From contig JAZDFI010000008.1 in the NCBI GenBank assembly GCA_043808015.1, positions 13,271 through 77,270 of the forward strand: a stretch of DNA of 64,000 nucleotides. The letters are read 5' to 3'. The translations under genes were made by a program, and so were the position numbers. The notes beneath the pieces are model-generated. The model had not been told where the DNA came from. It saw only the letters and a program-made list of their open reading frames with translations, and made no database searches. Numbering within the stretch: position 1 is the first letter of the stretch; every line of letters begins with the position of its first letter. The DNA is from Candidatus Aenigmatarchaeota archaeon (GTDB taxonomy: Archaea > Aenigmatarchaeota > Aenigmatarchaeia > QMZP01 > QMZT01). This document shows, one piece after another, positions 1 through 48,704 of this stretch.

Positions 1-1251
1 ACAGAAGAGATAAAGAGCATAATCATGAGGATACGCGGCATGGACCCCGGGAAAAGCGATGTTATCCGGTACTACGTACAACGAGACATCATCGGCCTGG
101 GCAGGATAGAGCCGCTCATGAGGGACAAGAACATCGAGGAAGTATCGTGCGACGGCGATAAAATCCCGCTTTACATCTACCACAGGAACCCGCTTTTCGG
201 CTCGACCGTGACCAATATAGTTTTCGACGACGCTGACGTTCTGGACACGTTCGTCATGAAGATGTCGCAGAAATGCGGCAAGTCGATTTCCGTCGCGGAT
301 CCCATGATAGAAGGCTCGCTGCCGGACGGCTCGAGGGTCCACGCGACGCTGGGAACGGACATAGCCAGACGAGGTTCGAATTTCACGATACGCAAGTTCA
401 CCAAGACACCGCTCACTCCGATACACATGCTGGAATACGGCACGCTCGACTCGACACAGCTCGCATACCTTTGGCTCGCGATAGAGAACCGCAAGTCCAT
501 GCTAATCTCCGGTGGTACGGCATCGGGCAAGACGTCGCTTCTCAATGCGCTGTCGCTTTTCATCAGACCCAACATGAAGATAGTTTCGATAGAGGATACG
601 CCGGAGCTGAGCCTGCCGCACCCCCACTGGGTGCCGGAAGTCGCCAGAACTCCGATATCCGAGGGCAAGAAGACCGGCGAGGTCAGCCTTTTCGACCTGC
701 TCAAGTCGTCGTTAAGACAGCGACCGGACTACATAATAGTCGGCGAGGTGAGAGGCACGGAAGCGTACGTCCTGTTCCAGCAAATCGCTACAGGTCACGC
801 CGGGATAGCGACGATTCACGCGGCGAATCTGCAGCAGCTCGTAGACAGACTTACGACGCCTCCCATCAACCTGCCGTCGAGCCTTATACAAAATCTGGAC
901 ATCATAGTGTTCATAATGCAGGTCAAGTCGCGCGACCGCTACGTGCGCAGAGTCAACCAGATTCTCGAGGTCACGGGAGTCAAGGGCGACAAGCCCGTGA
1001 CAAGCGAGGTCTTCAAATGGAAGCCCATCGATGACAAGTTCGAGCTTTCCGAGAGGAGCACCATGCTGGAGCACATCGCCAGGTCGCTCGGCCTGACAGA
1101 AATTACGCTAAAGGAAGAGATGCGCACCAGGAAGATCATCCTAGAGTGGATGTGGGAAAAGCGCATGTTCGACTACAGGGACGTGTCTAAAATGATAACC
1201 GGCTACTATTCCAATCCTGAAAGGATAATCGGCCTCGTCGAGGGCATATGA
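1..1251 (+). CDS. Type IV pilus/archaellum-family secretion ATPase (FlaI/PilB/GspE-like), 5'-truncated by the window edge
   Basis: Frame 1 is open from nt 1 (TEEIKSII precedes the first Met of ORF 25..1251). Walker A GGTASGKTS, Walker B-like DYIIVGEVRG and His-box ATIHAAN are present. Platform-protein genes follow directly. Confidence 0.85.
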   Translation, partial: TEEIKSIIMRIRGMDPGKSDVIRYYVQRDIIGLGRIEPLMRDKNIEEVSCDGDKIPLYIYHRNPLFGSTVTNIVFDDADVLDTFVMKMSQKCGKSISVADPMIEGSLPDGSRVHATLGTDIARRGSNFTIRKFTKTPLTPIHMLEYGTLDSTQLAYLWLAIENRKSMLISGGTASGKTSLLNALSLFIRPNMKIVSIEDTPELSLPHPHWVPEVARTPISEGKKTGEVSLFDLLKSSLRQRPDYIIVGEVRGTEAYVLFQQIATGHAGIATIHAANLQQLVDRLTTPPINLPSSLIQNLDIIVFIMQVKSRDRYVRRVNQILEVTGVKGDKPVTSEVFKWKPIDDKFELSERSTMLEHIARSLGLTEITLKEEMRTRKIILEWMWEKRMFDYRDVSKMITGYYSNPERIIGLVEGI

Positions 1252-1286
1252 GGTGCGACTAAGGCTGAGTTTTTCGTAATCCAGAC

Positions 1287-2156
1287 ATGCCTTGGCAAGG
1301 AAAATTTATGTTGGGAAGATTCGCATACAAACTTTTCGGGAGGGTAGTGGAATCATACGCCGAATATTTTGATTCTCTCAGCCTGCAGCTGAAGCAGGCC
1401 AAGATGAAATACCCGGTCGAGGAATACGTTTCGCTGCTGATGCTGGCGTCGCTCATAACCTTCGCGGCAGTTATAATGGCTGGCTCGTTCTACATTACCA
1501 TAACAACGGCCCGCGCTTTCTACTCGTACACGTTCTCCATCATAATCTCCTGCGTTGCGGCAGTCGGCGTGTTCTTCCTGGGCATGTATTATCCGACCAT
1601 GAAGGCGAAGGGCATACAGAGCGAAATAAACAAGTCCATTCCATTCGCCACGATTTACATGGCGACAGTCGCGTCTGCAGACACGAATGCGGCGCAGCTG
1701 TTCAAGATAGCTTCGCTCAGGGGCGGCCACATAGGCAAGGAGTGCGAAAAAATCTACCGCGACATACACATGCTCGGCATGGATGTTTCGACCGCGATAA
1801 CGAAGGCTGCGAACCGCACGCCGTCAGCGAAGTTCTCCGAGATGTTGTGGGGCATGCTTTCCGTGATAAAGCGCGGAGGCGACCTGGGCGAATACCTCGC
1901 GGACAAGTCCAAGGAATACATGAACGATTACAGGCGCTCGCTGGAAGACTATTCGAAGCAGATAAGTTTCTATACTGAGATTTACATAACGCTCATAATC
2001 GTGGGCACGCTGTTCTTCATCGTGCTCTCGTCGATAATGTCGCCGCTCGTGGGTGGCGATATACTCATGGTGCAGACGTTCCTGGTGTTCTTCTTCATAC
2101 CGCTCATATCCGCGGGATTCCTGGTATTGATGAAGAGCCTTTCACCTTCGAATTGA
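1287..2156 (+). CDS. Single T2SSF-domain membrane platform protein, first of two (FlaJ/PilC/TadB-like)
   Basis: 289 aa. TM segments flank a soluble helical domain typical of T2SS-F/PilC (IPFATIYMATVASADTNAAQLF, RTPSAKFSEMLWGMLSVIKRGGDLGEYL). Lies immediately downstream of the ATPase. Confidence 0.7.
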   Translation: MPWQGKFMLGRFAYKLFGRVVESYAEYFDSLSLQLKQAKMKYPVEEYVSLLMLASLITFAAVIMAGSFYITITTARAFYSYTFSIIISCVAAVGVFFLGMYYPTMKAKGIQSEINKSIPFATIYMATVASADTNAAQLFKIASLRGGHIGKECEKIYRDIHMLGMDVSTAITKAANRTPSAKFSEMLWGMLSVIKRGGDLGEYLADKSKEYMNDYRRSLEDYSKQISFYTEIYITLIIVGTLFFIVLSSIMSPLVGGDILMVQTFLVFFFIPLISAGFLVLMKSLSPSN

Positions 2157-2175
2157 AGGAAAATAGAGTGAACAT

Positions 2176-3102
2176 ATGGACAAGGAAAGGAGAGTGCTAC
2201 TGGTTTCGATGATAATAGCTGTCGTGCTGGTCAGCGTTTTCGCCGTCCTTACCCAGGATGTCGGCATCATAGTTAACGTGAGCGTCATAGCGCTGTTCAT
2301 AGTCATCACTCCGCTTTTCCTGATAAAATACACGGAATTACTCTGGTTAAAATCGATAGAGAAAGAGTTCCCTGCATTCATCCGCGACCTCGCAGGCTTA
2401 AAGCGCTCCGGCATCACGCTTTCCGAAGCGATAAAGATGACGACGAAGAACAACTATGGCAAGCTCACGCCTGAAATCCAGAAGTTCTCCAACCGCTTGT
2501 CCTGGGGCGTGCATTTCATCAGGGCGCTTGAAATTTTCGGCAAGCGCTTCCGCGCCTCGAAGCTCGTAACGGAGATACTGAGCATCGTAAGAGAAGCGTA
2601 TGTCTCGGGCGCCAACATATCGGTCACTCTCGATTCGCTTTCCAGGGATATGGTCACGCTCAAGGAGATCGATGAAGAGCGCAAGTCAGTCGTTCGCCAG
2701 CACGTCATGATAATGTACGGCATATTCTTCATGTTTGTCGCGATATCCATTTCCATAATCTACGTCCTCGTGCCCATGATGAGCCAGACGCAGCAGACGT
2801 CTGTAGCGAATTCGCCGTTAGTCATGTCCTTCGCCGACCCGTGCCAGAGGATGAACATCCCGTTCCCGTGCGCGTATTTCGGCGTGGTCTGCGAGTCGTT
2901 CTCAGTAAACCAAGGAGTGGGCTGCTATTACTTCTCGCTGTTCTTCACCGTGCTTGTCATACAGGCGATATTCATGGGCCTGATATCAGGGCAGCTCGGT
3001 GAGAATTCGATCGTCGCTGGCGTCAAGCACTCGCTCATAATGCTCGCTTCCGTGTTCATGATATTCATGTTCGTGGTCAGGAGCGGGCTGCTGCCGGTTT
3101 GA
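2176..3102 (+). CDS. Single T2SSF-domain membrane platform protein, second of two (FlaJ/PilC/TadC-like)
   Basis: 308 aa. N-terminal TMs, then EKEFPAFIRDLAGLKRSGITLSEAIKM...VSGANISVTLDSLSRDM (T2SSF-like), then C-terminal TMs. Starts 19 nt after the previous stop, in a different frame. Confidence 0.7.
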   Translation: MDKERRVLLVSMIIAVVLVSVFAVLTQDVGIIVNVSVIALFIVITPLFLIKYTELLWLKSIEKEFPAFIRDLAGLKRSGITLSEAIKMTTKNNYGKLTPEIQKFSNRLSWGVHFIRALEIFGKRFRASKLVTEILSIVREAYVSGANISVTLDSLSRDMVTLKEIDEERKSVVRQHVMIMYGIFFMFVAISISIIYVLVPMMSQTQQTSVANSPLVMSFADPCQRMNIPFPCAYFGVVCESFSVNQGVGCYYFSLFFTVLVIQAIFMGLISGQLGENSIVAGVKHSLIMLASVFMIFMFVVRSGLLPV

Positions 3103-3154
3103 TTCTGCAATATTTCCAGGCTAAATATTTTAAGAATACAAGCCAATAAAGAGT

Positions 3155-4009
3155 ATGGACTTCATCAGCGAATACTTCCTGAACCCCATTCTATCGAACG
3201 GCTGGTTCAACCCCGTCAATTCACTGGTTTATGGAATTATTCTTGTCGTGGCTGTATATTTTGTTTTCAAGCTCCTGAAGCGCATGCGCGTACGCATAGA
3301 CCGGCATTTCCTGTATGCGATAACGCCGTTCATCTTATGGGCGGCCATAACGCGCGTGCTTCACGACGCCGCGTTCGCTGGTGCGCTCAAAGGCGATATA
3401 GGCGATTTCTTCTCGATGCCGGTATTCCCGACGCCGGGCTCGTATTTCATCACGTTTACGCTCGCACTAGGAGTTTTAGTCATCTCTTTAGGCATACAGA
3501 AATATGCGAAAGCGATTCCGTACTGGAAATCCATGGCCGGGATTGGCGTGGCGCTATCGGCTATCGAATTAGCCATTATGCCAAAATTCGATATCATTCC
3601 AGTGGGCATGATTCTGGGCATCACTGGCCTATGGACTCTGCTGTTCTTCCTGTTCCACAAGTTTTCTGTTTCCTTGCAAAAAAAATCCATGCTGAAAACG
3701 CTTAAGCAGATTTTCACACTCGACAACTCGGCCATACTTTCGGCCCACATGCTCGATGCCAGCGCGACTTTCGTCGCCCTCGCGTTTTTCGGTTACGCCG
3801 AGCAGCATCCGCTGCCGCGCACGCTTATCGAGTTCTCCAACCCCGCGGCCATGTTCCTGCTCAAGCTCGTCGTGCTGATACCTGTTTTATACATAATCGA
3901 CCGTCACGCAGAGAAGGGCGAGTTCAAGAACTTCCTGAAGATAGTCATCTTCATACTAGGGCTCGCGCCAGGCCTGCGCGACATGATAAGGCTGATGGCA
4001 GGCGTCTAA
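3155..4009 (+). CDS. Polytopic membrane protein (possibly DUF63-like archaeal family)
   Basis: 284 aa with about 7-8 hydrophobic segments. The motif HMLDASATFVALAFFGYAEQHP is reminiscent of DUF63. The family call is from memory only. Confidence 0.5.
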   Translation: MDFISEYFLNPILSNGWFNPVNSLVYGIILVVAVYFVFKLLKRMRVRIDRHFLYAITPFILWAAITRVLHDAAFAGALKGDIGDFFSMPVFPTPGSYFITFTLALGVLVISLGIQKYAKAIPYWKSMAGIGVALSAIELAIMPKFDIIPVGMILGITGLWTLLFFLFHKFSVSLQKKSMLKTLKQIFTLDNSAILSAHMLDASATFVALAFFGYAEQHPLPRTLIEFSNPAAMFLLKLVVLIPVLYIIDRHAEKGEFKNFLKIVIFILGLAPGLRDMIRLMAGV

Positions 4010-4014
4010 CGATT

Positions 4015-7000
4015 TCAAGAATCAGAACCAGATTCTGCAGTGTATTGCGCCAATTCCTTCGGCCAGCATATATCATTGAATGTTATCAGCGTGTCCTTGG
4101 TGTCCTTCTTGGTGAAGCTGTACGTCGCACTCGCTGTTATAGTGTATGTCTTTTTCGGAACTTCTAACCTGCTGATACCGTTGTAGCTGCATACGCCGTC
4201 ATTTGAAAAGCCCAGCTCAAAAATATAGGCGGAAACGTTCGCGTCTTTATTGTTCAGATCAAATTTGAAACTTCTCGTGCACGTAGGTTCGCCCAAATCC
4301 TTGGTTACGTTTAAGGACACTTTGGCATTGCTTACCGCAGTGTTTTTCGGATCCCAAGTGGTTGAAAGATTGAAACCGATATAGAATCCTGTGCTTGCCT
4401 TTATTGGCTGGTCCATTGAACCGAGATTGAGGTTGGCAGGCGAAGTTGAAAGCAGAGAAGGCTTCTGCGCTCTTACAAGCTTGTCTTCTGATGAGAGCCT
4501 CTTCCATTCCTGGTCTGAAATGAAATCTATCTGCAGATTCGACGTCGACTCGTATTCGTAAGTCACGTTAATCATGAAAGGTATGTATTTCTCCCTCACC
4601 GTATGCTCTTGGCCGCCGATAAATCCGAAATCGTTCCACGCAGTGCTTCTGAAGTCTTCGCATTCCAGTTTACCGTAAAGTAGGATTGGGATGGTTTCTT
4701 TCATTTCTATATCTTCTATATTTATTCCCATAGCCTGGTTGATGTAATTTTTATCCATTGTGAACCTGTACCATTGTTCATTGGTCTTCTCGTTCTTGGG
4801 CAGCTTTTCCATTTTGTTTGTTGGGACGGTATTATGTCCAATCTTGAAATCCCTTATAGTCGTTAGTAAATCAATTCTGACGTTCTTTGCGTGGAATTGT
4901 CCCTTGTTCTCCAGCTCCATTTCTATCAAGAAAGGCTCCCCGAGATATATTGGATGGACGTCAAACTTCCTTATCTCCAGGCCGTACGCCCCTGATATTC
5001 CCATCTCGTTTTGCGCGTATTGGCCATTCGTTATCTGTTGAGCATACCCGACCGGGTTGGTGAACAGCATCCATCCCTGGCCGAACGTGTTCTGGAACTG
5101 ACCGAACATGTCGCCCATCGGCTTGAAGAAGTCATTTACGCCATTGTGGACTGACGGCCACCACTCGCCGAAGAAGGCCACGCCCACCGACTGCTGGCCG
5201 GAGCCAAGGCCGAAAATCACGAAACCTATCACGAGTATTATTACACCCATCCATGGCCTCGTCTCTGCCGGGGTTGTGAGCCCGGCTACAAGACCGAGAA
5301 TCCAAACGGCACTGAATACTATGCCGCCTGTTCCGGAGAAGAAGCCGCCAGCTAGGTTGAAGCCACCTATGACGGCAAAAATTACCATTATCGCAACGAA
5401 TACGACTTTGTCTATCATGTCGTAGCTTGCCCCTGACGCATTGCCTATTTTACCCAGAGCCTTTGCCAGGTTGTTCTTTTCTGTTGCGACAGGCAAAACG
5501 ACGAAGAAGGCCAACGTCAGCCAGCCAAGCTCTTTCGACTGGAATATGCCTCCGCCCAAAACGCCGAATATGAAAAAGGCTATGAAAAGTGCCAGCAGAA
5601 CCCTAACGAATGAAAGGATGAAGTCGTATGGCTTTGATGGTTCGAACTCTATCGGCATCTTGAAGTAAAAGCCGAACGCAAGGAACAGCAGCAGAAGATT
5701 GGAGCCCGGGAACTGCTGCGAATAAAGGCCGCCGATGAAGCACACCACGATGCCTGCCATCGCAACGGCTTTCAGAAAAGCTATGCCAGTGTTCGTTCTG
5801 TTTTCCGTATTAGTGAAAAGGCTGCCGAAAGTAGTGAATTCCTCGGCGTCGAGCTTGTTTTCCTTTGGGTTTGGAAGTATCATGTGGAAGCCCCAGAAAA
5901 TGAATCCGATAAGATACCATATGTTGCTTGTGTAAGCCGATATGGCAATTCCAATTATGACCAGAACCAGCGAAGAAATTATGTGATTGACGCCGTGACC
6001 AGTCTTCCTGGAAAAATCCGAGATGAGTCTGGAGCCTTTCGTCGCCTTTCCCAATGCTCGACCAGGACCCTTTTCTAAAATCGTGCTATCTGGCCTTTCG
6101 CCCTTACCGTCTAGATAATCTTTTATTTGCTCTTCTCTTGACCTGTTTTTTTCTTTTGCCTGTCCTTCTACCGACCGATTTTTTATTTCCAGTTTTATTA
6201 CGTCGGGGTCTGTCGGGCTGACTTCACCAGCGCTTACGACCACGCTTGCCGTTGCACTCACTTCCCTTACCTGCGTTGAAAATTCATCGGTGTATTCCTT
6301 CGTCACAGATACTTTGTATGACTTTACGCGCACTGCCGGCTGCCATGGTATCCTGCCGGCAGGAATGTCGGGAATGAAAAACTTGCCGTTCTTGCCGGAT
6401 GTGCCTTTATAATGCGTGCCGTTGACATCAATCAAGATTATTGCACCATCAACAGGAGAGCCGTGCAGGTCGGATATAATTCCGGTAGCAGCCCCGACTG
6501 CTTTGTCCGGGTCAGCCTGTTTGTTCCCTTCATGATTATGATAATGTAATTCTACATCTACAGGGTTGTCATGCACGTCAACATTGGTATTTCTATTTTT
6601 AGTGTTGTGAGTAGTGGTTTGTGTGCTACGCTGGTAGTTCTGATAGTTGAAATTAAATCCACCCTTGCCTTTTCCTCCGCCACCGCCTCCCCCACCGGAA
6701 CCGTCGAATTTTTTCGTTTTGACTTCTTTGAGCTCTTTTTTTAGCAGGAAATGACAGCCTTCTATGGCATAATGCGGATTGAAACCAGCGTTTGCCAGAG
6801 ACTTATTAATATCGATAGCTTTCGCATCTCCGGATTGAATATATGTGGGAATATCCTGAAGGTATCTCATAAGATCGTTGTATCTGGCTATTTTTTCCTT
6901 TGTGCCCATTCCCACCCATTGAACACCCGGAAAAAATATGTCCCTTGCGATTCTCAGCGCCTGCATATCCCTTCGTACTAAAGAAACTTCGTCCGGGTTT

Positions 7001-7053
7001 AAATCTGGCCCTTTCTTGCCTCTGCCTGTTAATCTGAACCTTTCAAGCACCAT
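4015..7053 (-). CDS. Large (1012 aa) multi-domain membrane protein of unknown function
   Basis: ATG at 7053. No N-terminal signal peptide. Contains a Gly run (GSGGGGGGGGKGKGG), an N/T/H-rich low-complexity stretch, a CarboxypepD_reg-like beta-sandwich (GSPVDGAIILIDVNGTHYKGTSGKNGKFFIPDIPAGR), about 8 TM helices, and a roughly 370-aa beta-rich C-terminal region with a CARDB-like segment (PIYLGEPFLIEMELENKGQFHAKNVRIDL). Confidence 0.7.
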   Translation of the reverse strand: MVLERFRLTGRGKKGPDLNPDEVSLVRRDMQALRIARDIFFPGVQWVGMGTKEKIARYNDLMRYLQDIPTYIQSGDAKAIDINKSLANAGFNPHYAIEGCHFLLKKELKEVKTKKFDGSGGGGGGGGKGKGGFNFNYQNYQRSTQTTTHNTKNRNTNVDVHDNPVDVELHYHNHEGNKQADPDKAVGAATGIISDLHGSPVDGAIILIDVNGTHYKGTSGKNGKFFIPDIPAGRIPWQPAVRVKSYKVSVTKEYTDEFSTQVREVSATASVVVSAGEVSPTDPDVIKLEIKNRSVEGQAKEKNRSREEQIKDYLDGKGERPDSTILEKGPGRALGKATKGSRLISDFSRKTGHGVNHIISSLVLVIIGIAISAYTSNIWYLIGFIFWGFHMILPNPKENKLDAEEFTTFGSLFTNTENRTNTGIAFLKAVAMAGIVVCFIGGLYSQQFPGSNLLLLFLAFGFYFKMPIEFEPSKPYDFILSFVRVLLALFIAFFIFGVLGGGIFQSKELGWLTLAFFVVLPVATEKNNLAKALGKIGNASGASYDMIDKVVFVAIMVIFAVIGGFNLAGGFFSGTGGIVFSAVWILGLVAGLTTPAETRPWMGVIILVIGFVIFGLGSGQQSVGVAFFGEWWPSVHNGVNDFFKPMGDMFGQFQNTFGQGWMLFTNPVGYAQQITNGQYAQNEMGISGAYGLEIRKFDVHPIYLGEPFLIEMELENKGQFHAKNVRIDLLTTIRDFKIGHNTVPTNKMEKLPKNEKTNEQWYRFTMDKNYINQAMGINIEDIEMKETIPILLYGKLECEDFRSTAWNDFGFIGGQEHTVREKYIPFMINVTYEYESTSNLQIDFISDQEWKRLSSEDKLVRAQKPSLLSTSPANLNLGSMDQPIKASTGFYIGFNLSTTWDPKNTAVSNAKVSLNVTKDLGEPTCTRSFKFDLNNKDANVSAYIFELGFSNDGVCSYNGISRLEVPKKTYTITASATYSFTKKDTKDTLITFNDICWPKELAQYTAESGSDS

Positions 7054-7125
7054 GTCGACCTGATAATAATTAATTAGGAATGTATAAATTTGTATAAAAA
7101 GAGAAAAGCGGTTCTAGCGACTACT

Positions 7126-7557
7126 TTACTTGCCGAACCAGAGCTTGAGCTCGGCTTTCGCTTCATCGGGCGTGCCGGAGGCGTGAATGAGATTGTAGAT
7201 GGAGCGGTGCTCTTTGTCGGCCTTCTCGCACGAGTCGTCGCCCAGATCGCCTCGTATCGTGCCCTTGTCGGCCTTGCTGGGGTCGGTAGCGCCGACTATT
7301 CGCCTCACGTGCGCGACCGCGTCCTTCCCTTCGAGCACCATAGCGACGACCTGCCGGTTGGCCAGGTATTTGATGAGCAGCTCAAAGAACGGCTTCCCCT
7401 TGTGCATGGCGTAATGCGTCTCAACAAAATCGCTGGTCGGCGCGACCATCTTCATGTTTCGCACTTTCAGGCCGCCGTCTTCAAAGCGCCTTATTATCTC
7501 GCCGATCAGGTTTCTGTCGACTCCGTCGGGCTTTATCAGGACTAGCGTTTTCTCCAT
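7126..7557 (-). CDS. ndk: Nucleoside diphosphate kinase
   Basis: MEKTLVLIKPDGVDRNLIGEIIRRFE...NLIHASG. ATG at 7557 is preceded by GAGGAGTGA. The longer ORF start at 7575 is less likely. Confidence 0.9.
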   Translation of the reverse strand: MEKTLVLIKPDGVDRNLIGEIIRRFEDGGLKVRNMKMVAPTSDFVETHYAMHKGKPFFELLIKYLANRQVVAMVLEGKDAVAHVRRIVGATDPSKADKGTIRGDLGDDSCEKADKEHRSIYNLIHASGTPDEAKAELKLWFGK

Positions 7558-7561
7558 AAAA

Positions 7562-8212
7562 TCACTCCTCAGCAAGCTTGTTTTTCTTCATGTAAGCATC
7601 AACCGATTTCAACATCCTGCGCGACACGTCTTCGATGCCGCCCACGGCGTCAACCTCTATTAGCACGCCTTTCTTCGTGTAGAAATCCACAAGCGGCTTC
7701 GTCGCCTTTTCATACACTTTCAGGCGCTTTTTGACCACGTCGTTTTTCTGATCCTCGCGGACGTAAAGTGCGCCTTTGCATTTGTCGCACATGCCGCTCT
7801 TCTTCGGCTTCGCGAACTTGTGGTGGTATATTTCCCCGCAATATCCGCATGTCAGGCGGCCTGTCATCCTTTCCAGGATGTTCCTGTTCGGCGCGACGAA
7901 GTTGATGACCATATCGATAGCGGCCGTCTTTTCGAGTTCTTTGGCCTGCACCAGCGTCCTGGGGAAGCCGTCGAGAATGAACCTCTTCCGCCCCTTGATG
8001 GCTTTCTTCATTATTTCCATAACTAAAGCGTCCGGCACCAGCTCGCCGCGGTCCATGTAAGCCTTCGCCTTTCTGCCTATTGCCGTGCCTTTCTTTGATT
8101 CGTTGCGCAGCATCTCGCCCGTGCATATGTTGGGTATCTTCATTCTGGTTGAAAGTATGCTGCACTGGGTTCCTTTGCCTATGCCCGGCGGGCCAAGGAG
8201 AATTATTTTCAT
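7562..8212 (-). CDS. adk: Adenylate kinase (long type with zinc-ribbon lid)
   Basis: MKIILLGPPGIGKGTQ P-loop and lid CGYCGEIYH...CDKCKG. Stop lies 4 nt before the ndk start. Confidence 0.9.
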   Translation of the reverse strand: MKIILLGPPGIGKGTQCSILSTRMKIPNICTGEMLRNESKKGTAIGRKAKAYMDRGELVPDALVMEIMKKAIKGRKRFILDGFPRTLVQAKELEKTAAIDMVINFVAPNRNILERMTGRLTCGYCGEIYHHKFAKPKKSGMCDKCKGALYVREDQKNDVVKKRLKVYEKATKPLVDFYTKKGVLIEVDAVGGIEDVSRRMLKSVDAYMKKNKLAEE

Positions 8213-8404
8213 GAATGTTCCTCTAGCTAGGATTATTATTCTTCAAAACGCATGCTTAAAACCTTTTCGCTACGCTCTCGTTTCTATCCCTTTCCTTATG
8301 CTCTTTATGAAATCCTCTGGCTTGACGTCGAACTTGACCTCCACTTTGGTCTGTAATGTCCTTGCTAACAACTTATTCATGTCTCCTATGACAATAATGT
8401 TACA

Positions 8405-9545
8405 ATGAGATTTAACATTCTGCAATATCTGCCTAAAGAAACAAAGATAATGATTGACAAAGATTTAGCGCAAATTCTATTTGCCAATAAAAAACTTTGC
8501 GAATTTTCCAGAGAATACGGAATCGGCTTAAAAAATATGAGCAGATACAGAAACTGCACCCGCTCGATTCCTATAAAATTATTTCAAAAAATAGCTCAAA
8601 ATTCTCCCATTAGAATGGAAGAATTCCAAGGAAAGATGCGAATTAAAATAAACAGAATGGGCAAGTATGTCAAAATAGGACCTGTTATAAACATTGATGA
8701 AAAGTGGGTATATATTTCGGAACTCATTAAAGGTGATGGTTATATCCCGTCTACTTACTGGTATATAGTTTTTGTTAATAAAAATGAAAATTTGATTAAT
8801 GTTGTCAAGAACTTTTTTTTTATCTTTGGGCTTGCCTGAAAAACAAATTGATATTCGAAGAAGATCAGATGCAACATTCCTTACAGTCAGATCATCTCCT
8901 ATTGCATACATCCTCAACGGAATACTTGGAGTGCCTGTTGGGAAGAAGGGCGAGATCGGTATCAAAAAGTTTGTTATGAATGATAAAATATTGTCGGTGG
9001 CGGCCGTTAGAGGGGCATTTGATGCGGAAGGTGCCGCTACATTCACCGGGTCGCGGAGGATATCCATAACGTCAAATAGTCAAACATGGCTCCTATATTT
9101 AAGTAAAATATTGAAGAATCTCGGTATAAAATCCACAATATATGAAGAACGGAAAGGTAGAAAAAAACCGATATATCGTTTGTTTGTGCAACATATTATT
9201 AACATTCGCAGGTTTTATGAAATAGTCCAACCTCAGCATACGCAAAGGAGTAGAAAACTTAGAGAAATCATTGAAACGTACAGCAAACCATATTTTGGTG
9301 TCGGGTATCTGAGGAAACCCATACTTCTTTCGATAAAATCAGGAAATACGAGAAGATCAAAAATAGCAGAAGACATATCACAAAATCCTATAACAGTTGG
9401 AAATAATATCAAATGGTTAAGAAAAAGAGGACTGATAAGGCCTTCAAAAATGGTTTATACGAACAATGGTGGCTTCTATGAATATATTTTGACAGAGATG
9501 GGGCTGAAATACCTAAGAGATGACACTCTCTCTTTTTTTGATTAG
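8405..9545 (+). pseudogene. Free-standing double-motif LAGLIDADG endonuclease-like gene with N-terminal HTH and C-terminal winged helix, interrupted by a frameshift
   Basis: ORF 8405..8839 carries motif 1 (SELIKGDGYI). ORF 8799..9545 carries motif 2 (AAVRGAFDAEGAA) and a wHTH-like tail (ITVGNNIKWLRKRGLI). The frames switch at a T9 run (8813..8821). The region is visibly AT-rich. Confidence 0.6.
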
Positions 9546-11240
9546 CTTGGTTATTTCGCTAATGAAGTCATCAATCTTAACGTTAAATTTCACCTTACCA
9601 TCTCTCGTTCTAACTGCCAAAGTGTTATTTTTTTCCTCTTTATCGCCAATTGTAATTACAAAAGGTATTTTATTTACAGCCGCATCCCTTACTTTGTATT
9701 CCACTGTGTTCGATTTCAGGTCGCATTCCGCCCTTATCCCCGCATTTTCAAGGCTTTTCAAGATTTCACCGGCCGCCTTATTGTTCCTGTCCGTGAAGGA
9801 CAGGACGCGCACCTGGACAGGCGAGAGCCAGACCGGAAGGTTGCCGTCAAAGTGCTCGAGAAGTATGCCTATGAACCTTTCCAAAGAGCCGTATATGACC
9901 CTGTGCAACATTACCGGCCGATGGTCCTCGTTGTCTTCCCCTTTGTACGTCAGGTCGAACCTTTCCGGCATGGCGAAGTCGAGTTGTATGGTTGCGCACT
10001 GCCAGGTCCTGCCCTGGCTGTCCTTGATGTGATAATCAATTTTCGGGCCGTAAAACGCACCATCGCCCTTGTTTATCTTGAAGTTCATTTTTTTGTGTTT
10101 GAGTGTCTCCTCGAGCTTCGCCTCCGCCTTGTCCCATATTTTGTCGTCGCCTATCCTTTTCTCGGGCCTGGTGGAAAGCTCGACGTGGTATTCGAACCCG
10201 AACTTTTTGTAAAATTTATCGACCAGTTCCATTATCCTTCCTATCTCGCTCTCCAGTTGTTCTTCGGTGCAGAAGATGTGCGCGTCGTCCTGAGTGAAGC
10301 GAATTACCCTGAAAAGCCCTGTGAGCACGCCGGACAGCTCCTGGCGGTGGACTACGCCAAGCTCGCCGACGCGAAGGGGGAGATCTTTGTAGGACTTGGG
10401 CCTGTTCTTGTAAACCATCATCCCTCCGGGGCAGTTCATGGGCTTGACGGCAAAGCTCCGGCCCTCGTACTCGGTTATGAAGTTGTTCTGGTATTTCTCC
10501 CAATGGCCTGAAATCTGCCACAACTTCTTGTCCATGATTTGCGGAGTCGAAATCTCCTGGTATCCAGCCTTCCTGTGCTGCTCCCTCCAGAAGCTGATTA
10601 GTTCGTTATATATGGTGAGACCCTTATCATGCCAGAACACCATACCTGGAGCGACTTCGCTGAAGCTGAAGAGGTCCATCTTCTGGCCGAGTATGCGGTG
10701 ATCGTTGTCCTTGAGGTTATCCTTGTCGAGCCGCGTCTTCGAGATGTCTCTCATAAGCTGCTTGTAGTCAAAACTCTCTTCCTTCGTTACCTTGGTTTTT
10801 GTTTTGGTCCTCTCGACCCCCTCGGGCAGTATGTCCCTGCTGAGCTCCGAAAGAGGATGCCCCTTGCACTTTATGTCGAAGGCCTTGTACCAGCCGAAGG
10901 GAGCGCGCTTAACCGGGACTTTCGCTTCGATTAGCGCTTCTTCCACGCCCTTGAGCACGTAGAGAGCGGAATCCGGCGACGATAGATCGCTGGACAGGTG
11001 GGCATACGGATAAACGACTACGTTTTTGGCGTTTACCTGGTTTCTGACGGATATGATTTCCTTGGCGGCTTTCTTGACCACGTCATCGAGGTTTGCCTGG
11101 TCCAGCTTCTCGACCGCGCTGAACACGACGAGGGCGTCTTCGACTCGTACGGGTTTCTTCTCGATTTCCTCCGCGCTTGAAATGGCTTTCTTCTTCGGCT
11201 CCCACTCTATGAAATCCGAATGCAGCAATAATATCTTCAT
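9513..11240 (-). CDS. thrS: Threonyl-tRNA synthetase, archaeal type with N-terminal archaeal editing domain
   Basis: 575 aa. Starts MKILLLHSDFIEWEPKKKAI. Class II core (FWHDKG, RVIRFTQDDAHIF) and a C-terminal anticodon-binding domain. Confidence 0.9.
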   Translation of the reverse strand: MKILLLHSDFIEWEPKKKAISSAEEIEKKPVRVEDALVVFSAVEKLDQANLDDVVKKAAKEIISVRNQVNAKNVVVYPYAHLSSDLSSPDSALYVLKGVEEALIEAKVPVKRAPFGWYKAFDIKCKGHPLSELSRDILPEGVERTKTKTKVTKEESFDYKQLMRDISKTRLDKDNLKDNDHRILGQKMDLFSFSEVAPGMVFWHDKGLTIYNELISFWREQHRKAGYQEISTPQIMDKKLWQISGHWEKYQNNFITEYEGRSFAVKPMNCPGGMMVYKNRPKSYKDLPLRVGELGVVHRQELSGVLTGLFRVIRFTQDDAHIFCTEEQLESEIGRIMELVDKFYKKFGFEYHVELSTRPEKRIGDDKIWDKAEAKLEETLKHKKMNFKINKGDGAFYGPKIDYHIKDSQGRTWQCATIQLDFAMPERFDLTYKGEDNEDHRPVMLHRVIYGSLERFIGILLEHFDGNLPVWLSPVQVRVLSFTDRNNKAAGEILKSLENAGIRAECDLKSNTVEYKVRDAAVNKIPFVITIGDKEEKNNTLAVRTRDGKVKFNVKIDDFISEITKLIKKRESVIS

Positions 11241-11414
11241 CCGCCATCACCTTTATCTTTATTTTTTACCATCACGGTTAATTAAACTCCCGGCTGGCCG
11301 GAGACAAATAAAAATCAGCCCGGCCGCAGACCTTTGGCTAGCACGTGGTCGTCGTAGTCGTCGTTTCGCTAGCGGTCTTGCCGGAATTCATAGAAGTTAA
11401 TTGTACAGGAAAGT

Positions 11415-12263
11415 TTAAAAGTTTTTCAGGAACGAGTAAACGCATTCCGGCAGCTTCTCGCTGTATCCGCCTTCCAGCACTGCGAATCTCGATATTTTCA
11501 GATCGGCTATCATCTTGGCGATTTTTGCATAAGTGGCGACGTTGAGCTTCAGCCCGCCAATCGGGTCGCCATCGAGCGTGTCGAAGCCCGCCGATATAGC
11601 CAGCGCATCCGGCTTGAAGTTTTCTATTATCTCCATCGCAGCTCCGAGCCTGTCGAGATAAAGCGTTTCTTCCGTCCCTGCGTCGAGCGGGAAGTTGTAA
11701 CAGTTCGCTTCAGAATGCTTGCCGGTGCCCGGATAGAAAAACGCTCCATATTGATGCAGCGATACGACTATCACGTTCTTTTTGCCAAGAAAGATTTCCT
11801 GCGTGCCGTTGCAGTGATGTACGTCGATGTCGAGAACCGCGACCTTCTTTTTCTGTTGCAGAAGCCTCGAGACCGCGAGCGCGATGTTGTTGAAATAGCA
11901 GAATCCCTCGAAATTCGTCTTGCCCGCGTGATGGCCGGGCGGGCGCATTAACGAGAATGCTTTTCCTTCCTTCAGCGATATATCGGCGGCCAGCATAGCC
12001 GCTCCTGCAGCGAGTTTCGCGTGGTCGTAAATGCCCGGGAGCGCTGGCGTTTCCGGATTGAAGAAACGGTCGTGCTTTATTTCGTTGACCATCGCCTTAG
12101 AATGGACGAGCAGCAGGTCCTGCCGCTCGCACGGCTCCGGCTGGACGAACTCGAAGCCCTTGAAATTCTGCAGGAACTCGTAACTCCTTCTCACCCGCGC
12201 GCTCGACTCGGGGTGGCCCGGCGCATCGTATCCGAGACACTTGGGCGAGAATATTATCTTCAT
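11415..12263 (-). CDS. Histone deacetylase-family (AcuC/Aph-like) zinc deacetylase
   Basis: Motifs PPGHHAGKTNFEGFCYFNN, DIDVHHCNGTQEIF, SAGFDTLDGDPIGG and LEGGYS. Start moved to MKIIFSPK (ATG 12263). The upstream 83 codons of the ORF overlap the divergent primase gene. Confidence 0.8.
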   Translation of the reverse strand: MKIIFSPKCLGYDAPGHPESSARVRRSYEFLQNFKGFEFVQPEPCERQDLLLVHSKAMVNEIKHDRFFNPETPALPGIYDHAKLAAGAAMLAADISLKEGKAFSLMRPPGHHAGKTNFEGFCYFNNIALAVSRLLQQKKKVAVLDIDVHHCNGTQEIFLGKKNVIVVSLHQYGAFFYPGTGKHSEANCYNFPLDAGTEETLYLDRLGAAMEIIENFKPDALAISAGFDTLDGDPIGGLKLNVATYAKIAKMIADLKISRFAVLEGGYSEKLPECVYSFLKNF

Positions 12264-12323
12264 ATATAATACATGGGGAGGCGTATCAAATAATTTAACC
12301 CCTGCCCCCAATCTATAGGTATT

Positions 12324-13637
12324 ATGATGGATTTGAGAGGGGTGCACGAGTATTATGCAAGGGAGGATGTGCAGAACTTCCTGCTCGAGTTCGGTAGAGA
12401 CAGGGAAGTCGTTGGCGTGTTCAGGAACGGCAGTTTCTCTCAGAGGCCTAACGTCGTTCTCTACCCGAATGACGTTCTCGCTATGGTCAAGACGGGCGTC
12501 GTCGAATTCCACTCGTCTCTCGAACGTTGGTCACAGCCCATGAGCCTGAAGCAGGACAACCATGGCCAGCTGCGCAAGGGATGGGACCTCATAATGGACG
12601 TGGACTGCGAGCTTTTCGAGCACGGCAAAATCGCCTCGGAGGCGTTCATCTGGGGCCTGCGCAAGCACGATATAAAAAACGTGTCCATAAAGTTCACTGG
12701 CGGCACTGGGTTCCACATAGGCATACCATGGGAGTCGATACCAAACGTCATAGACTATAAACCAGCGGCTTCCCTTTATCCCGAGCTCGCCCGAAAGATG
12801 GTGCTGTACCTGAAAGATTATGTTTTTGAAAGGCTGGAAAAGAACCTGTTCAAAAAATTCTCGGCCGAGGAAATGGCACAGCAGGTGAACAAGCCTCTCG
12901 GCAAGATACTCACGGAAGACGGCCTGAACGCGTACGCGGTGGTCGACGTCGACCCGGTCCTCATATCGCCGCGGCATCTATTTAGAATGCCTTACTCGCT
13001 AAACGCGAAGACGTTTCTCGTTTCGCTGCCCATCGATCCAGACAGGCTTGACAGCTTCGACCGCATGCAGGCCAAGGCAGAGCGCGTGCGAGTGCTGACG
13101 CCCTTCCTCTCCGGCGAAGGCAGGGACGGCGAAGCCGATACGCTCATAGCCGAGGCGCTGGACTGGAACGCGCGGATGCGCAAGAAGGAGGAGAAGCGGC
13201 TCGAACACAGAAACGAGATAACACGACCCGTCCCCATCGAGCGTTTCCCGCCGTGCGTCAAGAACATACTGAACGGGCTGCAGGATGGACGAAAGCGCTC
13301 GATGTTCATCCTCATCAACTTCCTGCGCTCCTCAAAGTGGACGTGGGACGACATAGAGAAGTTCGTCACCGAATGGAACAAGAGCAACAAGCCGCCGCTT
13401 CCGGAGAGCCACGTCCGCTCGCATATAAGATGGCACAGGACGAGGAACAAGGAAGTCCTGCCTCCGAATTGTTCGAACGAGGGATGGTACAAGAACTTCG
13501 GCGTGTGCGCGCCTGACGAGAAATGCGCCAAGGTAAAGAATCCGGTCAACTACGCGCTCCGCGGCATGAAGGCCGAGGAAGAGAAGAAAGACAAAACAAA
13601 AACCAAAACTAAGAAGCGCGCCCGCCGTCAGATGTAA
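12324..13637 (+). CDS. priS: DNA primase: PriS catalytic domain fused to a PriL C-terminal (Fe-S)-like domain
   Basis: PriS motifs DLIMDVDCE, FTGGTGFHIGIPW and VDPVLISPRHLFRMPYSLNAKT. C-terminal part: FPPCVKNILNGLQDGRKRSMFILINFLR...PPNC...GVCAPDEKC, with four Cys spaced like the PriL-CTD cluster ligands. Confidence 0.8.
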   Translation: MMDLRGVHEYYAREDVQNFLLEFGRDREVVGVFRNGSFSQRPNVVLYPNDVLAMVKTGVVEFHSSLERWSQPMSLKQDNHGQLRKGWDLIMDVDCELFEHGKIASEAFIWGLRKHDIKNVSIKFTGGTGFHIGIPWESIPNVIDYKPAASLYPELARKMVLYLKDYVFERLEKNLFKKFSAEEMAQQVNKPLGKILTEDGLNAYAVVDVDPVLISPRHLFRMPYSLNAKTFLVSLPIDPDRLDSFDRMQAKAERVRVLTPFLSGEGRDGEADTLIAEALDWNARMRKKEEKRLEHRNEITRPVPIERFPPCVKNILNGLQDGRKRSMFILINFLRSSKWTWDDIEKFVTEWNKSNKPPLPESHVRSHIRWHRTRNKEVLPPNCSNEGWYKNFGVCAPDEKCAKVKNPVNYALRGMKAEEEKKDKTKTKTKKRARRQM

Positions 13638-13792
13638 AAACTTGTCCAGCAGAATTTCCAGTCGACGCAGTTGCTGAAGCCGCCATTCTCATTTGTACAA
13701 CAGTCTCTGCATAGCGGTTTCTGCGTTTTCTTGCACACCACGACTTTCAATGTTTTAGTGCATTTTTCGCACGCGTGCTTTTCGCTTTCCAT
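13628..13792 (-). CDS. Small Cys-rich ORF (54 aa), unknown function
   Basis: Not in the ORF track (under 60 aa). Hand translation: MESEKHACEKCTKTLKVVVCKKTQKPLCRDCCTNENGGFSNCVDWKFCWTSFYI, with 9 Cys. Its TGA overlaps the primase stop region. Confidence 0.3.
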   Translation of the reverse strand: MESEKHACEKCTKTLKVVVCKKTQKPLCRDCCTNENGGFSNCVDWKFCWTSFYI

Positions 13793-13876
13793 CAGAACAC
13801 TGGTGATTTTTAATTTAGAAATGTAGTTAGTTGGATTACTAATAAGCTTGATTGCGTGTGTTCCAGAAAAAACTGC

Positions 13877-13996
13877 TTAACCCCTCTTCAGCTTCTCAAG
13901 CCTGACAGAACCGCATTTGGGGCAGACTTTCGTCGCCGGCTCCATTATGACGGGCTTGACGTCTTTCCCGCACTGCAGACATCTGTATTTTGCCAT
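13877..13996 (-). CDS. rpoP: Zinc-ribbon protein resembling RNA polymerase subunit P (Rpo12)
   Basis: Not in the ORF track. Hand translation: MAKYRCLQCGKDVKPVIMEPATKVCPKCGSVRLEKLKRG (39 aa). The Y-x-C-x2-C...C-P-x-C-G pattern matches archaeal RpoP. Confidence 0.45.
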   Translation of the reverse strand: MAKYRCLQCGKDVKPVIMEPATKVCPKCGSVRLEKLKRG

Positions 13997-14035
13997 GATT
14001 GTTATTCATGCTGGCAGAATTTAAATTCGCTGGCA

Positions 14036-15112
14036 TTAGTCCATGTGCAGCTCGACGATGTCGCCGTCCCTGAGAAGATGTTTTATGCCGACCTTCTGGC
14101 CATCAAATCTTGCCGTCGGTCCCCATATGCGCGCGTGGTCAAGATTCCTGGCGAACTCCCTGTGTATGCGTTCCGCTGCATCGTATACTGTCACGCCTTT
14201 CTTCATTATGAGCGGTTTTTCCATGTCCGGCGGCTTGCCGATTCGCTTCAGGTATATCCTGACCAGCTCGAGACGATTCCATATCGCCCTCTTCATCTCT
14301 TCCACACCCTCGCCCTTCAGTGATGAGATTTTCATATAATCCTTTGGAATAGTTTTCCTCCGCTCGTCCGTAAGGAGGTCGGACTTGGAAAAAACAATCA
14401 TCACCTTGACGTAAGCCCTGTTGCCTGACGTCGCGTCAATCAGTCGGTCGAGCGTTATGTCCTCGCGAATTATGACGTCGGCGTTGTGTATGCCGCGCTC
14501 GTTCATGATCAACTTGACCATTTTTTCGTCAACGTGCCGCAGGCGTACGCCTGCACTCACTTTGACTCCACCCCTGTCAGTCTTTTTTATCGTCACGTTC
14601 GGCGGTTTTTCGTTCAGCCTGAATCCCGCTTCGTAAAGTTCGCGCTGTATAACTTGCAGCTGCTGCGCGCTTTCTATCATTATCAGAATCAAATCGGCAT
14701 TCCTTACAACCGAGAATATCTCCTTGCCGCGCCCGCGGCCGGCTGAAGCGCCAGTCACGATGCCTGGGATGTCCAGGACCTGTATTTTCGCGGAGTTGTA
14801 TTCCAGTACGCCCGGCACGACGTCTAGAGTCGTGAAGTCGTATTCTCCGACCTTCGAATCCGCGGATGTTATCTTGTTAAGCAGCGTCGATTTGCCGACG
14901 GAAGGAAAGCCAACCAGCAGAACCGTCGCGTCTCCGCATTTCTTGACAGAAAAAACCTTACCGCCCACACCAGACTTGCCGCCGCTTTCTATTTCCTCCT
15001 TCAGTCGCGCTAGTTTACACTTCAGCTGGCCGACGTGGTATTGCGTGGCCTTGTTGTATTTGGTTTTGTGTATCTCCTCTTCTATCTTCTTCATTTCCTC
15101 TTCGCGACCCAT
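14036..15112 (-). CDS. DRG/Obg-family GTPase with C-terminal TGS domain
   Basis: G1 GFPSVGKSTLLN, G3 DIPG, G4 SKSD, and a TGS-like C-terminus (VTVYDAAERIHREF...DGDIVELH). Confidence 0.85.
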   Translation of the reverse strand: MGREEEMKKIEEEIHKTKYNKATQYHVGQLKCKLARLKEEIESGGKSGVGGKVFSVKKCGDATVLLVGFPSVGKSTLLNKITSADSKVGEYDFTTLDVVPGVLEYNSAKIQVLDIPGIVTGASAGRGRGKEIFSVVRNADLILIMIESAQQLQVIQRELYEAGFRLNEKPPNVTIKKTDRGGVKVSAGVRLRHVDEKMVKLIMNERGIHNADVIIREDITLDRLIDATSGNRAYVKVMIVFSKSDLLTDERRKTIPKDYMKISSLKGEGVEEMKRAIWNRLELVRIYLKRIGKPPDMEKPLIMKKGVTVYDAAERIHREFARNLDHARIWGPTARFDGQKVGIKHLLRDGDIVELHMD

Positions 15113-15151
15113 ATGCCCTCTTTTATTATGGAGTTTTCAGAATTATATTAT

Positions 15152-19999: not shown

Positions 20000-20007
20000 A
20001 AGCGTCA

Positions 20008-20349
20008 CTAGCAGCTGGAATGAATTAAGGCGACCGCTTTCTTCTTGTCGGCCAGGAAGCCGTTGAACATCTTAGCAGCCTTGGGCGAAAGGTCATGGTA
20101 TATCTCGATTTTTTTGTCCTCAGCGGCCTGGGCGACTTCCTCGGGGATTGTGACGTGGCCTTCCATGCCAGTGCCCAGAATAATGAGTTCAGGCTCTTTC
20201 TCGGCAAGCTTCAGGAACTCGTTTATGCCGAACTCGTGCGATTTCGTGCGGAATTCGATCTTGCCGTCCCACCACACAATCATGTCGGAAAAGTAGGTCT
20301 TGCCGTCTATATCGACCTCGTCGAACCTGACATCAGTTATCTTTACCAT
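20008..20349 (-). CDS. Mth938-domain (DUF498) protein
   Basis: MVKITDVRFDEVDIDGKTYFSDMIVWWDGK...PELIILGTGMEG. Start set at ATG 20349 because the longer ORF runs into the tRNA gene. Confidence 0.6.
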   Translation of the reverse strand: MVKITDVRFDEVDIDGKTYFSDMIVWWDGKIEFRTKSHEFGINEFLKLAEKEPELIILGTGMEGHVTIPEEVAQAAEDKKIEIYHDLSPKAAKMFNGFLADKKKAVALIHSSC

Positions 20350-20382
20350 GTTTATTATTGGTATTGGAGCGGATAAAAAGAA

Positions 20383-20547
20383 TAGCCCCGGGCGGATTCG
20401 AACCGCCGTCAACCGGTTTCTCCCGATTCGGGTTTTTGCTGAAGCTTTTTATTAAAAAGCTTCGTCCAGAGCCGGTTATCCTTAACCCCCCTCTCAAATC
20501 GCTTTAAGAAAAATTTTCAAAGGGATTGGCCACTAGACTACGGGGCT
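20383..20547 (-). tRNA. tRNA-Gln(CUG) with two introns (D-loop and canonical 37/38)
   Basis: Hand fold of the reverse complement: AGCCCCG-TA-GTCT-AGTGGCCAA-[44 nt]-GGAT-A-ACCGG-CTCTGG-[48 nt]-A-CCGGT-TGAC-GGCGG-TTCGAAT-CCGCC-CGGGGCT-A. The spliced product is 73 nt. Confidence 0.75.
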
Positions 20548-21422: not shown

Positions 21423-21573
21423 TAAATTATTTAGTTTTTCTCACTTATAAATTTCCTTGTACACTGGACTACATATTAAAAAGTAAAATAATGTCAAATT
21501 ATTGTAACTTTTTAGTGATAAAACTATTTATAAATAAAAAAATCAAGTATTTACAATAAAACGGGTGACAGGT

Positions 21574-46400: not shown

Positions 46401-47992
<1,592 letters not shown>

Positions 47993-48668: not shown

Positions 48669-48704
48669 GAAACATTGGCGAGTTGTCCTGACAAAAAGGA
48701 TCTG
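48669..48704 (+). promoter_or_regulatory. 5' arm of the 23S processing stem
   Basis: GAAACAT-TGGCGAGTTGTCC-TGACAAA-AAG-GATCTG pairs with 51817..51855. Helices of 6, 7, 13 and 7 bp are separated by 3-nt bulges (bulge-helix-bulge-like). Confidence 0.7.

Follow-up and report, generated by a model that had tools for sequence, protein, structure and literature searches.

A divergent nine-helix membrane protein family of Aenigmarchaeota, a candidate platform for contact with other cells

Background

Polymorphic toxin and effector systems such as Rhs, CdiA and LXG have a conserved trunk with swappable C-terminal domains, and in monoderm conjugation and type IV secretion VirB6-like polytopic proteins act with VirB1-like wall hydrolases. 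The gene described here shares features with both. It is the open reading frame (ORF) at 4015-7053 of a 64,000-nucleotide stretch of contig JAZDFI010000008.1 (positions 13,271 to 77,270, assembly GCA_043808015.1), which was analysed as a whole and is referred to below as the window. The source organism is a DPANN archaeon (Aenigmatarchaeota), and the gene encodes a polytopic membrane protein that belongs to an undescribed family, found mainly in Aenigmarchaeota.

Woesearchaeota and Pacearchaeota encode large surface proteins with a murein transglycosylase domain (fam00969), for which a role in binding or attacking bacterial walls has been proposed, and unannotated, mostly membrane or extracellular families specific to Aenigmarchaeota were noted in the same work (PMC8204110, PMC9723730). 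Secreted peptidoglycan hydrolases of archaea kill bacteria (PMC12352652), and AmpG1-Slt of Acinetobacter baumannii is reported to link the cleavage of glycans with the import of muropeptides (PMC13507758). Few DPANN archaea have a known host or a known means of attachment, and the family presented here is a specific candidate for a determinant that recognises or attacks the partner cell.

A family with a conserved core and variable ends

The window protein is encoded by a complete ORF with an ATG start, 1012 residues and a stop codon, as originally predicted, and its conserved homologues rule out a spurious ORF. It falls outside the families of Pfam, NCBIfam, PHROG and the PDB, and no nine-transmembrane (TM) family of this kind is described in the literature searched. 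The architecture was first put down as unrecognised, and with no full-length match to a characterised family in these four databases it still is.

When 1.84 billion cluster representatives were searched exhaustively with a profile, 358 were recovered at E<=1e-3, 177 of them at E<=1e-30, giving a family size of 358 clusters at 50% identity. Word-indexed searches, which returned 7-27 relatives, had badly understated the family. The source names of the members are all Aenigmarchaeota but one, which is labelled Micrarchaeota, and close relatives are present in 12 GTDB species-representative genomes. The window protein would be better annotated as a member of this family than as a 'hypothetical protein'.

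A local hidden Markov model (HMM) divides the family into an N-terminal extension of 0-561 residues, a core of 665 positions and a C-terminal extension of 0-512 residues, so that both ends are variable. The window protein (NCBI entry P0001) matches core positions 1-664 and stops seven residues past the core, and thus has no C-terminal extension. The full core is present in 88 sequences, and another 40 (128 in all) begin at TM5, which indicates that the minimal unit consists of TM5-TM9 and the ectodomain. The least variable parts are TM5-9 and the juxtamembrane helices, and the most variable are the N-terminus and, among the structured parts, the ectodomain and TM1-4.

Murein hydrolases at the C-terminus of relatives

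Pfam scans of 42 diverse members identified SLT domains in ten, Glucosaminidase in three, Amidase_3 and Peptidase_M23 in one each and CarboxypepD_reg in five, along with zinc ribbons of several families in a few. About one third of the scanned relatives with long extensions bear a hydrolase. In all six relatives where the hydrolase was located, it lies C-terminal to the core. In P0006 the core ends at residue 792 and a glucosaminidase occupies 834-905; in P0075 the core ends at 1124 and is followed by SLT at 1193-1313; and P0049, with its core end at 1024, bears two hydrolase domains, a glucosaminidase at 1211-1283 and an amidase at 1334-1528. P0051, P0045 and P0110 have the same order.

The hydrolase bearers are spread over at least five sequence clusters, and enzymes swap within one clade, since the core of P0049 (glucosaminidase and amidase) is 61% identical to that of P0045 (SLT). 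Together these two observations point to repeated gain, loss and swapping of the enzymes. The window protein's own cluster includes the glucosaminidase-bearing P0006 and P0018.

C-terminal extensions of at least 60 residues are found in 105 of the 147 members with a complete core end, and extensions of 40 residues or more number 110, of which 102 are Cys-rich. The window protein is among the 20 of 147 that end within 15 residues past the core, and the Pfam scan found no SLT, glucosaminidase, amidase or M23 domain in it.

A divergence hot spot

The locus was compared with that of a sister Aenigmatarchaeota metagenome-assembled genome (MAG) from Lac Pavin (L003). DNA identity between the two is 91.2% over window positions 1-4008 and 88.7% over 9551-15999. 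Within the gene itself the alignment is reduced to three patches at 69-76%, with nothing matched in the N-terminal third, and it breaks off at the two ends of the gene. At the protein level, T2SSE, T2SSF and DUF63 next to the gene are 97, 99 and 92% identical to their L003 counterparts, versus 56% for the core of the window protein, a level of amino-acid identity at which synonymous sites are saturated. The corresponding values against a further locus, L014, are 85, 79, 76 and 40%, and between the near-identical strains L001 and L009 they are 99, 98, 95 and 96%. The GC content at third codon positions (GC3) is 0.537 in the gene and 0.448 in its N-terminal part, whereas the genes on either side have values of 0.65-0.77. 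Replacement of alleles, or diversifying selection, at an exposed determinant would fit these observations.

Predicted structure and topology

Two AlphaFold2 (AF2) models, one of the core based on 12 sequences (predicted local distance difference test, pLDDT, 69.4) and one of the full-length protein based on 26 (pLDDT 66.9), agree on nine TM helices at residues 355-614, long amphipathic helices at 620-675, and two beta-sandwiches at about 692-860 and 862-990 (pLDDT about 85). Hydropathy likewise gives nine helices, where the original prediction had counted about eight. The first of them starts at about residue 354 and not some 370 residues into the protein, and the beta-rich C-terminal region, first put at roughly 370 residues, comprises about 310 (692-1000) that follow some 75 residues of juxtamembrane helices. 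Structure prediction, which had been suggested as a check, modelled the membrane core and both immunoglobulin (Ig)-like sandwiches and left residues 110-295 unmodelled.

The juxtamembrane helices are 54-75% identical even to those of distant relatives. In alignments A1, A2 and A4 the ectodomain cysteines C798, C925, C955 and C996 and the motifs GxGxQ, WWP and GAYGxE are invariant or nearly so, with C955 kept in 96% and C996 in 97% of the 128 sequences. It is probable that the two Ig-like sandwiches are held by two disulfides. Other residues conserved widely in the core are mostly G, P, F, W and Y, together with R484, R599, E693, N716 and E849.

The C-terminal fold is modelled as Ig-like. Foldseek against the PDB returned tandem Ig-like sandwiches only (integrin alpha legs, factor XIII barrels and arrestin), with E values of about 1e-5 and a TM-score of about 0.09. 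The region had been called CARDB-like, and this description appears valid at the level of the fold only: the window protein has no Pfam match to CARDB (PF07705) at E<=1, and among the 42 relatives three have weak CARDB matches (best E 0.002) and three have weak DUF11 matches. The best hit of a sequence profile search of the PDB had an E value of 0.09, a structure search of BFVD returned nothing meaningful, and the nine-TM core may represent a new membrane fold. Internal duplications were considered and rejected, both for TM1-4 versus TM5-9 (hhalign probability 33%) and for sandwich 1 versus sandwich 2 (7%).

The predicted topology is N-in/C-out, as indicated by the asymmetry of Lys and Arg, the distribution of zinc ribbons, the conserved ectodomain cysteines and the density of sequons. 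The predicted inside segments carry 6, 2, 1, 3 and 0 Lys and Arg residues (sum 12), versus none in all the outside inter-helix loops. Paired CxxC zinc-ribbon signatures are found in 28 of 87 N-terminal and in 0 of 66 C-terminal extensions, the latter having a Cys content of 5.9%. For its length the ectodomain has about threefold more N-glycosylation sequons than the N-terminal extensions (0.74 versus 0.27 per 100 residues). The short family members that begin at TM5 are compatible with this topology.

The N-terminal region

The N-terminus is hydrophilic (MVLERFRLTGRGKKGPD...), which agrees with the earlier statement that the protein has no signal peptide. The helical domain at residues 20-105 is predicted to be cytoplasmic and has no sequence match in the PDB. 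It is followed by a low-complexity linker in which the Gly run GSGGGGGGGGKGKGG (residues 117-131, nt 6661-6705) precedes an N/T/H/Q-rich tract extending to about residue 185, much as first described. The Gly run is encoded by mixed GGN codons, which rules out a sequencing or homopolymer artefact, and apart from a 24-nt stretch of Gly codons the gene contains no tandem repeats. The linker (residues 110-185) could not be aligned to relatives.

The sole Pfam match in the window protein is to CarboxypepD_reg (PF13620), at 20.2 bits (E 7.9e-4; residues 190-235, profile positions 3-50 of 82), below the cut-off of 32.3 bits. Residues 186-296 are 33% identical to residues 154-288 of P0014 (BLASTP E 4e-15), which carries a precomputed PF13620 match, and another relative, P0051, scores 36 bits, above the cut-off. 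Based on this homology, a CarboxypepD_reg-like domain is probably real. The beta-sandwich proposed for it finds support in this respect and not in the models, where AF2 builds no sandwich in the segment (pLDDT <50); a PDB search with the segment gave no match. The segment is predicted to lie on the cytoplasmic side, which would be unusual for that fold.

A proposed role in contact with other cells

The family may well be a fast-evolving cell-surface contact platform that shows a binding or wall-degrading tip to the envelope of another cell, although we put this forward tentatively. A contact role is supported by the DPANN affiliation of the organism, the predicted external C-terminus with its conserved cysteines, the hydrolase fusions and the fast divergence. 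The cytoplasmic N-terminus, which varies between lineages, would consist of the helical domain, the disordered Gly/Asn/Thr/His linker and the CarboxypepD_reg-like segment. The nine-helix membrane core and the juxtamembrane helices at its outer face would carry an extracellular stalk of two Ig-like sandwiches, which in most relatives would run on into a Cys-rich module, with some adding an interchangeable SLT, glucosaminidase, Amidase_3 or M23 domain. Modules for binding or for degrading walls would thereby face the envelope of an adjacent cell, which is most plausibly a bacterium. The invariant unit of TM5-TM9 and juxtamembrane helices might couple the outside to the variable cytoplasmic domain, or serve as a conduit. 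The window protein, a bare variant that ends right after the second predicted sandwich, would act by binding or docking, not by hydrolysis. The locus would be under diversifying pressure or subject to allele replacement, as expected of a partner-recognition determinant.

Several points weigh against a contact platform. The window protein has neither a hydrolase nor a Cys-rich module, and the link to murein runs through relatives at 30-60% identity. We know of no host for Aenigmarchaeota. Model quality is moderate (AF2 pLDDT 67-69; predicted TM-score, pTM, 0.44-0.48), and the PDB and BFVD searches and the conservation across 128 sequences show neither a recognisable fold nor a catalytic motif in the membrane core. 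A CarboxypepD_reg-like sandwich in the cytoplasm is atypical and leaves some doubt on the topology, and the low GC3 could come from low expression instead of import.

A more specific version of the contact platform, which we consider doubtful, is a contact-dependent host-interaction machine particular to DPANN archaea. Here the nine-TM core would be a conduit, the Ig-like stalk would carry a tip exchanged by recombination, which would be bare, a Cys-rich binder or a murein hydrolase of one of four classes, and the allele would set the bacterial partner to attach to, breach and feed on. If true, this would give a first molecular entry point to episymbiosis or predation across domains in Aenigmarchaeota. 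The family also hints that some Aenigmarchaeota deal with bacteria, not archaea.

Alternative functions and the evidence from synteny

The core may instead be an uptake conduit, a nine-TM permease or channel importing fragments freed by attached or separately encoded hydrolases, or other host molecules, with the ectodomain capturing the substrate. The core is far more conserved than a simple anchor requires, especially TM5-9 and the predicted cytoplasmic-face motifs ENRTNTG, EFEPxKPY, PVATEK and PAETRPW. The fusion of murein hydrolases to a polytopic protein also parallels the coupling in AmpG1-Slt (PMC13507758), and two members are labelled 'MFS transporter' by NCBI. However, the 25 commonest Pfam families listed for the 42 members (E<=1) include no transporter, the core has no internal repeat or pseudo-symmetry, and conserved polar residues within the membrane are few, which makes an uptake function unlikely. 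The MFS label of the two relatives was rejected, as no transporter family was among those listed.

DUF63 (PF01889, now named AliA_AliB) is the most constant neighbour of the family. Of 18 informative loci, 16 have DUF63 in convergent orientation at a distance of 0-2 genes, and among them are clades at about 30% identity in which the pilus genes, threonyl-tRNA synthetase (ThrRS), ADK and NDK are no longer close by. In L004, L015, L016 and L017 (32-34% identity) it alone remains convergent and adjacent. In the SLT clade (L021-L023, about 30% identity) it is one small gene away, with T2SSE/F, ThrRS, ADK and NDK not within 7 kb; the metagenome search made with the alignment of this clade (A5) matched six loci, five of them with the family core. 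Since archaea need AliA and AliB to lipidate their lipoproteins (PMC12462473), the window protein might be an envelope-biogenesis partner of the DUF63 protein that handles, anchors or organises lipid-modified or other surface proteins. We regard this as distinctly unlikely. The genes are convergent and hence not co-transcribed; the identities to L003 (92% for DUF63, 56% for the window protein) indicate no co-evolution; DUF63 is absent at L018 (the Micrarchaeota-labelled locus) and L020; and the neighbourhood analysis of AliA and AliB names other partners and no such protein (PMC12462473). The linkage may be no more than gene order left over within a single phylum. It goes back further than the pilus link, but the genes are convergent and their rates unrelated.

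The original prediction drew attention to the pilus locus, and the protein could be an accessory or adhesin of the adjacent Tad/Epd-like type IV filament machine. The gene does converge on the T2SSE-T2SSF-T2SSF-DUF63 operon, with the two stop codons 5 nt apart, and this tail-to-tail arrangement is conserved in 9 of 17 informative loci, all from closer clades. In the other eight (L004, L016, L017, L018 and L020-L023) the adjacency is missing: L016, L017, L018, L020 and L021-L023 have neither T2SSE nor T2SSF within 7-10 kb, and in L004 the nearest filament gene is a T2SSE alone that starts about 9.5 kb off. The expected synteny with type IV pilus loci thus held for the closer relatives and not for the distant clades. 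Convergence places the gene outside the filament transcription unit. No homology to filament components (ATPase, platform, prepilin, peptidase or alignment proteins) was detected in the window protein with Pfam and NCBIfam, and the 25 families listed as most frequent in the 42 relatives include none of the filament. The rates are also decoupled, with 97-99% identity for the filament proteins versus 56%. A pilus component is largely disfavoured on these grounds and a filament accessory appears very unlikely; the pilus link looks like local synteny and is unsuitable for annotating the gene. A surface or contact role had been read from this position, and that role keeps its support from other evidence while the positional argument is weak.

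A virus receptor, decoy or other arms-race target unrelated to host contact, with hypervariability as escape from archaeal viruses, would account for a hot spot whose breakpoints sit exactly at the gene boundaries and whose GC3 is atypical, and for an exposed ectodomain that is the most variable structured part, but it is highly improbable, as it leaves the recurrent independent fusions to four murein hydrolase classes and the conserved polytopic core unexplained, has no PHROG or BFVD relatives to point to, and names a selective pressure, not a function, that is compatible with a contact platform.

The gene, its start codon and neighbouring features

The NCBI protein P0001, from the Candidatus Aenigmatarchaeota MAG, is 100% identical to the window protein but is called from M49 (964 residues). 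The start at M1 (position 7053) is better supported, on the basis of the confidently modelled helical domain at residues 20-105, its 23-27% identity with P0012, P0014 and P0007, and a TATA-like stretch upstream (Table 1). A start at M49 would split the predicted conserved domain in half, and the NCBI start is probably 48 codons too late. No paralogue of the protein was found elsewhere in the window.

Table 1. Positions of the family gene, its predicted parts and other features, in window coordinates unless a locus is named
Feature	Position	Strand	Basis
Complete ORF, member of an uncharacterised polytopic membrane protein family	4015..7053	-	ORF list, translation, P0001 identity, profile search
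TATA-like AT-rich stretch tttttatacaaatttataca, putative archaeal promoter	7081..7100	-	read off the sequence; 28-47 nt upstream of the M1 ATG
N-terminal helical domain, residues 20-105, predicted cytoplasmic	6739..6996	-	AF2 pLDDT 86-95; identity of 23-27% to N-termini of P0012, P0014, P0007
Low-complexity linker, residues 110-185 (Gly run and N/T/H/Q-rich tract)	6499..6726	-	translation, DNA; AF2 pLDDT 23-30, no secondary structure
CarboxypepD_reg-like segment, residues 186-296	6166..6498	-	sub-threshold PF13620; BLASTP to P0014
Predicted nine-helix TM core, residues 354-615; TM5-TM9 the most conserved part of the family	5209..5994	-	AF2, hydropathy
Predicted juxtamembrane helices, outer face, residues 616-690; motifs GxGxQ, FGxWWPxxHN, TFGQ, NPVGYAxQI	4984..5208	-	alignments A1, A2, A4; 128-sequence conservation
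Predicted ectodomain beta-sandwich 1, residues 691-860; CARDB/DUF11-like signature LENKGxxxAKNV, conserved C798	4474..4983	-	
Predicted ectodomain beta-sandwich 2, residues 861-1000; conserved C925, C955, C996	4054..4473	-	AF2, Foldseek, C-extension statistics
Tad/Epd-like type IV filament locus (T2SSE and two T2SSF platform genes)	25..3102	+	Pfam
T2SSE ATPase, cut by the window start	25-1251	+	Pfam
T2SSF, single-domain	1287-2156	+	Pfam
T2SSF, single-domain	2176-3102	+	Pfam
DUF63 (AliA_AliB) membrane protein gene	3155..4009	+	Pfam E 3.9e-64
NDK	7126-7575	-	gene call/Pfam
ADK	7562-8212	-	gene call/Pfam
Low-GC insertion	8216-9551		absent from L003
144-residue ORF in the insertion	8405-8839		no matches
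LAGLIDADG_3 homing-endonuclease-like ORF in the insertion	8799-9545		E 3.7e-13
ThrRS	9513-11240		
Low-GC stretch (GC 0.373)	20001-22000		
Two tandem PQQ_2/BamB-like beta-propeller proteins	21565-24254		
Propeller protein weakly similar to the upstream 373-490-residue gene	22902-24254		27% over 104 residues
16S rRNA, archaeal	46401-47839		
23S rRNA	48693-51828		
tRNA match, 109 nt	54658-54766		71-position model
Upstream 373-490-residue gene	L004 8795-9916; L023 4603-5724; L022 4852-6249; L021 4452-5924		
GT4 glycosyltransferase and 240-residue ORF	L019 13461-15422		

In Aenigmarchaeota, judged from the window and the homologous loci L001-L019, the DUF63/AliA_AliB-family gene closes the T2SSE-T2SSF-T2SSF filament operon. 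The filament platform is encoded by two T2SSF genes of one domain each, a division also known from bacterial TadB/TadC. In L019 a GT4 glycosyltransferase gene and a 240-residue ORF are inserted between the family gene and DUF63, and in L021-L023 that slot holds an ORF of 208-265 residues on the DUF63 strand, one of which has a weak Tat-signal match.

A gene of 373-490 residues without a Pfam match lies immediately upstream of the family gene, in the same direction, in L004 and L021-L023. The copies are 30-41% identical, and the gene is a possible operon partner. It is weakly similar to one of two tandem beta-propeller proteins of 462 and 450 residues encoded in the window, just downstream of a low-GC stretch. 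Giant ORFs lie further upstream of the family gene in L004 (at least 2911 residues) and L023 (1492 residues).

The insertion between ADK and ThrRS has a GC3 of 0.33, versus about 0.7 in its flanks. Its LAGLIDADG_3 ORF overlaps the ThrRS stop by 33 nt, and the insertion looks like a free-standing mobile endonuclease. ThrRS itself is 90% identical to that of L003 and 33-34% identical to those in the same syntenic slot of L001, L005, L013 and L014, where it has about 630 residues versus 575 in the window and where the surrounding genes are 65-85% identical. This suggests that two divergent ThrRS types have been exchanged at one position. The window also carries an rRNA operon and a tRNA match that is longer than its model and probably contains an intron.

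Comparison with known systems

Like the fam00969-type proteins, the window family belongs to DPANN archaea and consists of large, membrane-bound or extracellular proteins, many of which carry SLT or glucosaminidase domains. Compared by description, the two sets differ in that the fam00969-type proteins are defined by the SLT domain and reach about 3000 residues, whereas the window family is defined by the nine-TM core and two sandwiches. The former are reported for other phyla, and the latter occurs in Aenigmarchaeota and at least one Micrarchaeota-labelled MAG. The window protein differs further in having no hydrolase at all.

AmpG1-Slt resembles the window family in that a lytic transglycosylase is physically joined to a polytopic protein that has an extracytoplasmic domain, which in this family is the case in relatives of the window protein. 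AmpG, however, belongs to the MFS permeases, has a known fold and serves to recycle the wall of its own cell, whereas the family core has no MFS signature and archaea lack murein.

With the VirB6/VirB1 pair the family shares a large polytopic protein with an extracellular part and the same hydrolase classes (SLT, glucosaminidase, M23 and amidase). A VirB6/TrbL-like channel subunit was considered and rejected, as there was no Pfam match and no VirB4-like neighbour in the called-gene tables.

The polymorphic toxins and the secreted archaeal hydrolases show no sequence relation to the family, and no immunity gene or secretion-system signature was seen with it. The trunk of the toxins also differs from that of the window family, which is an integral nine-TM protein, so that any effector would stay tethered to its producer. 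As in polymorphic toxins, the C-terminal end varies within one clade (nothing, Cys-rich, SLT, glucosaminidase, amidase or M23), and the probable allele replacement at the window locus is a further likeness. The ectodomain, finally, resembles the Ig-like E-set ectodomains of CARDB (PF07705), DUF11 (PF01345) and the integrin alpha legs in its predicted tandem beta-sandwiches and in the N-x-G-x(3)-A-x-N-V signature of sandwich 1.

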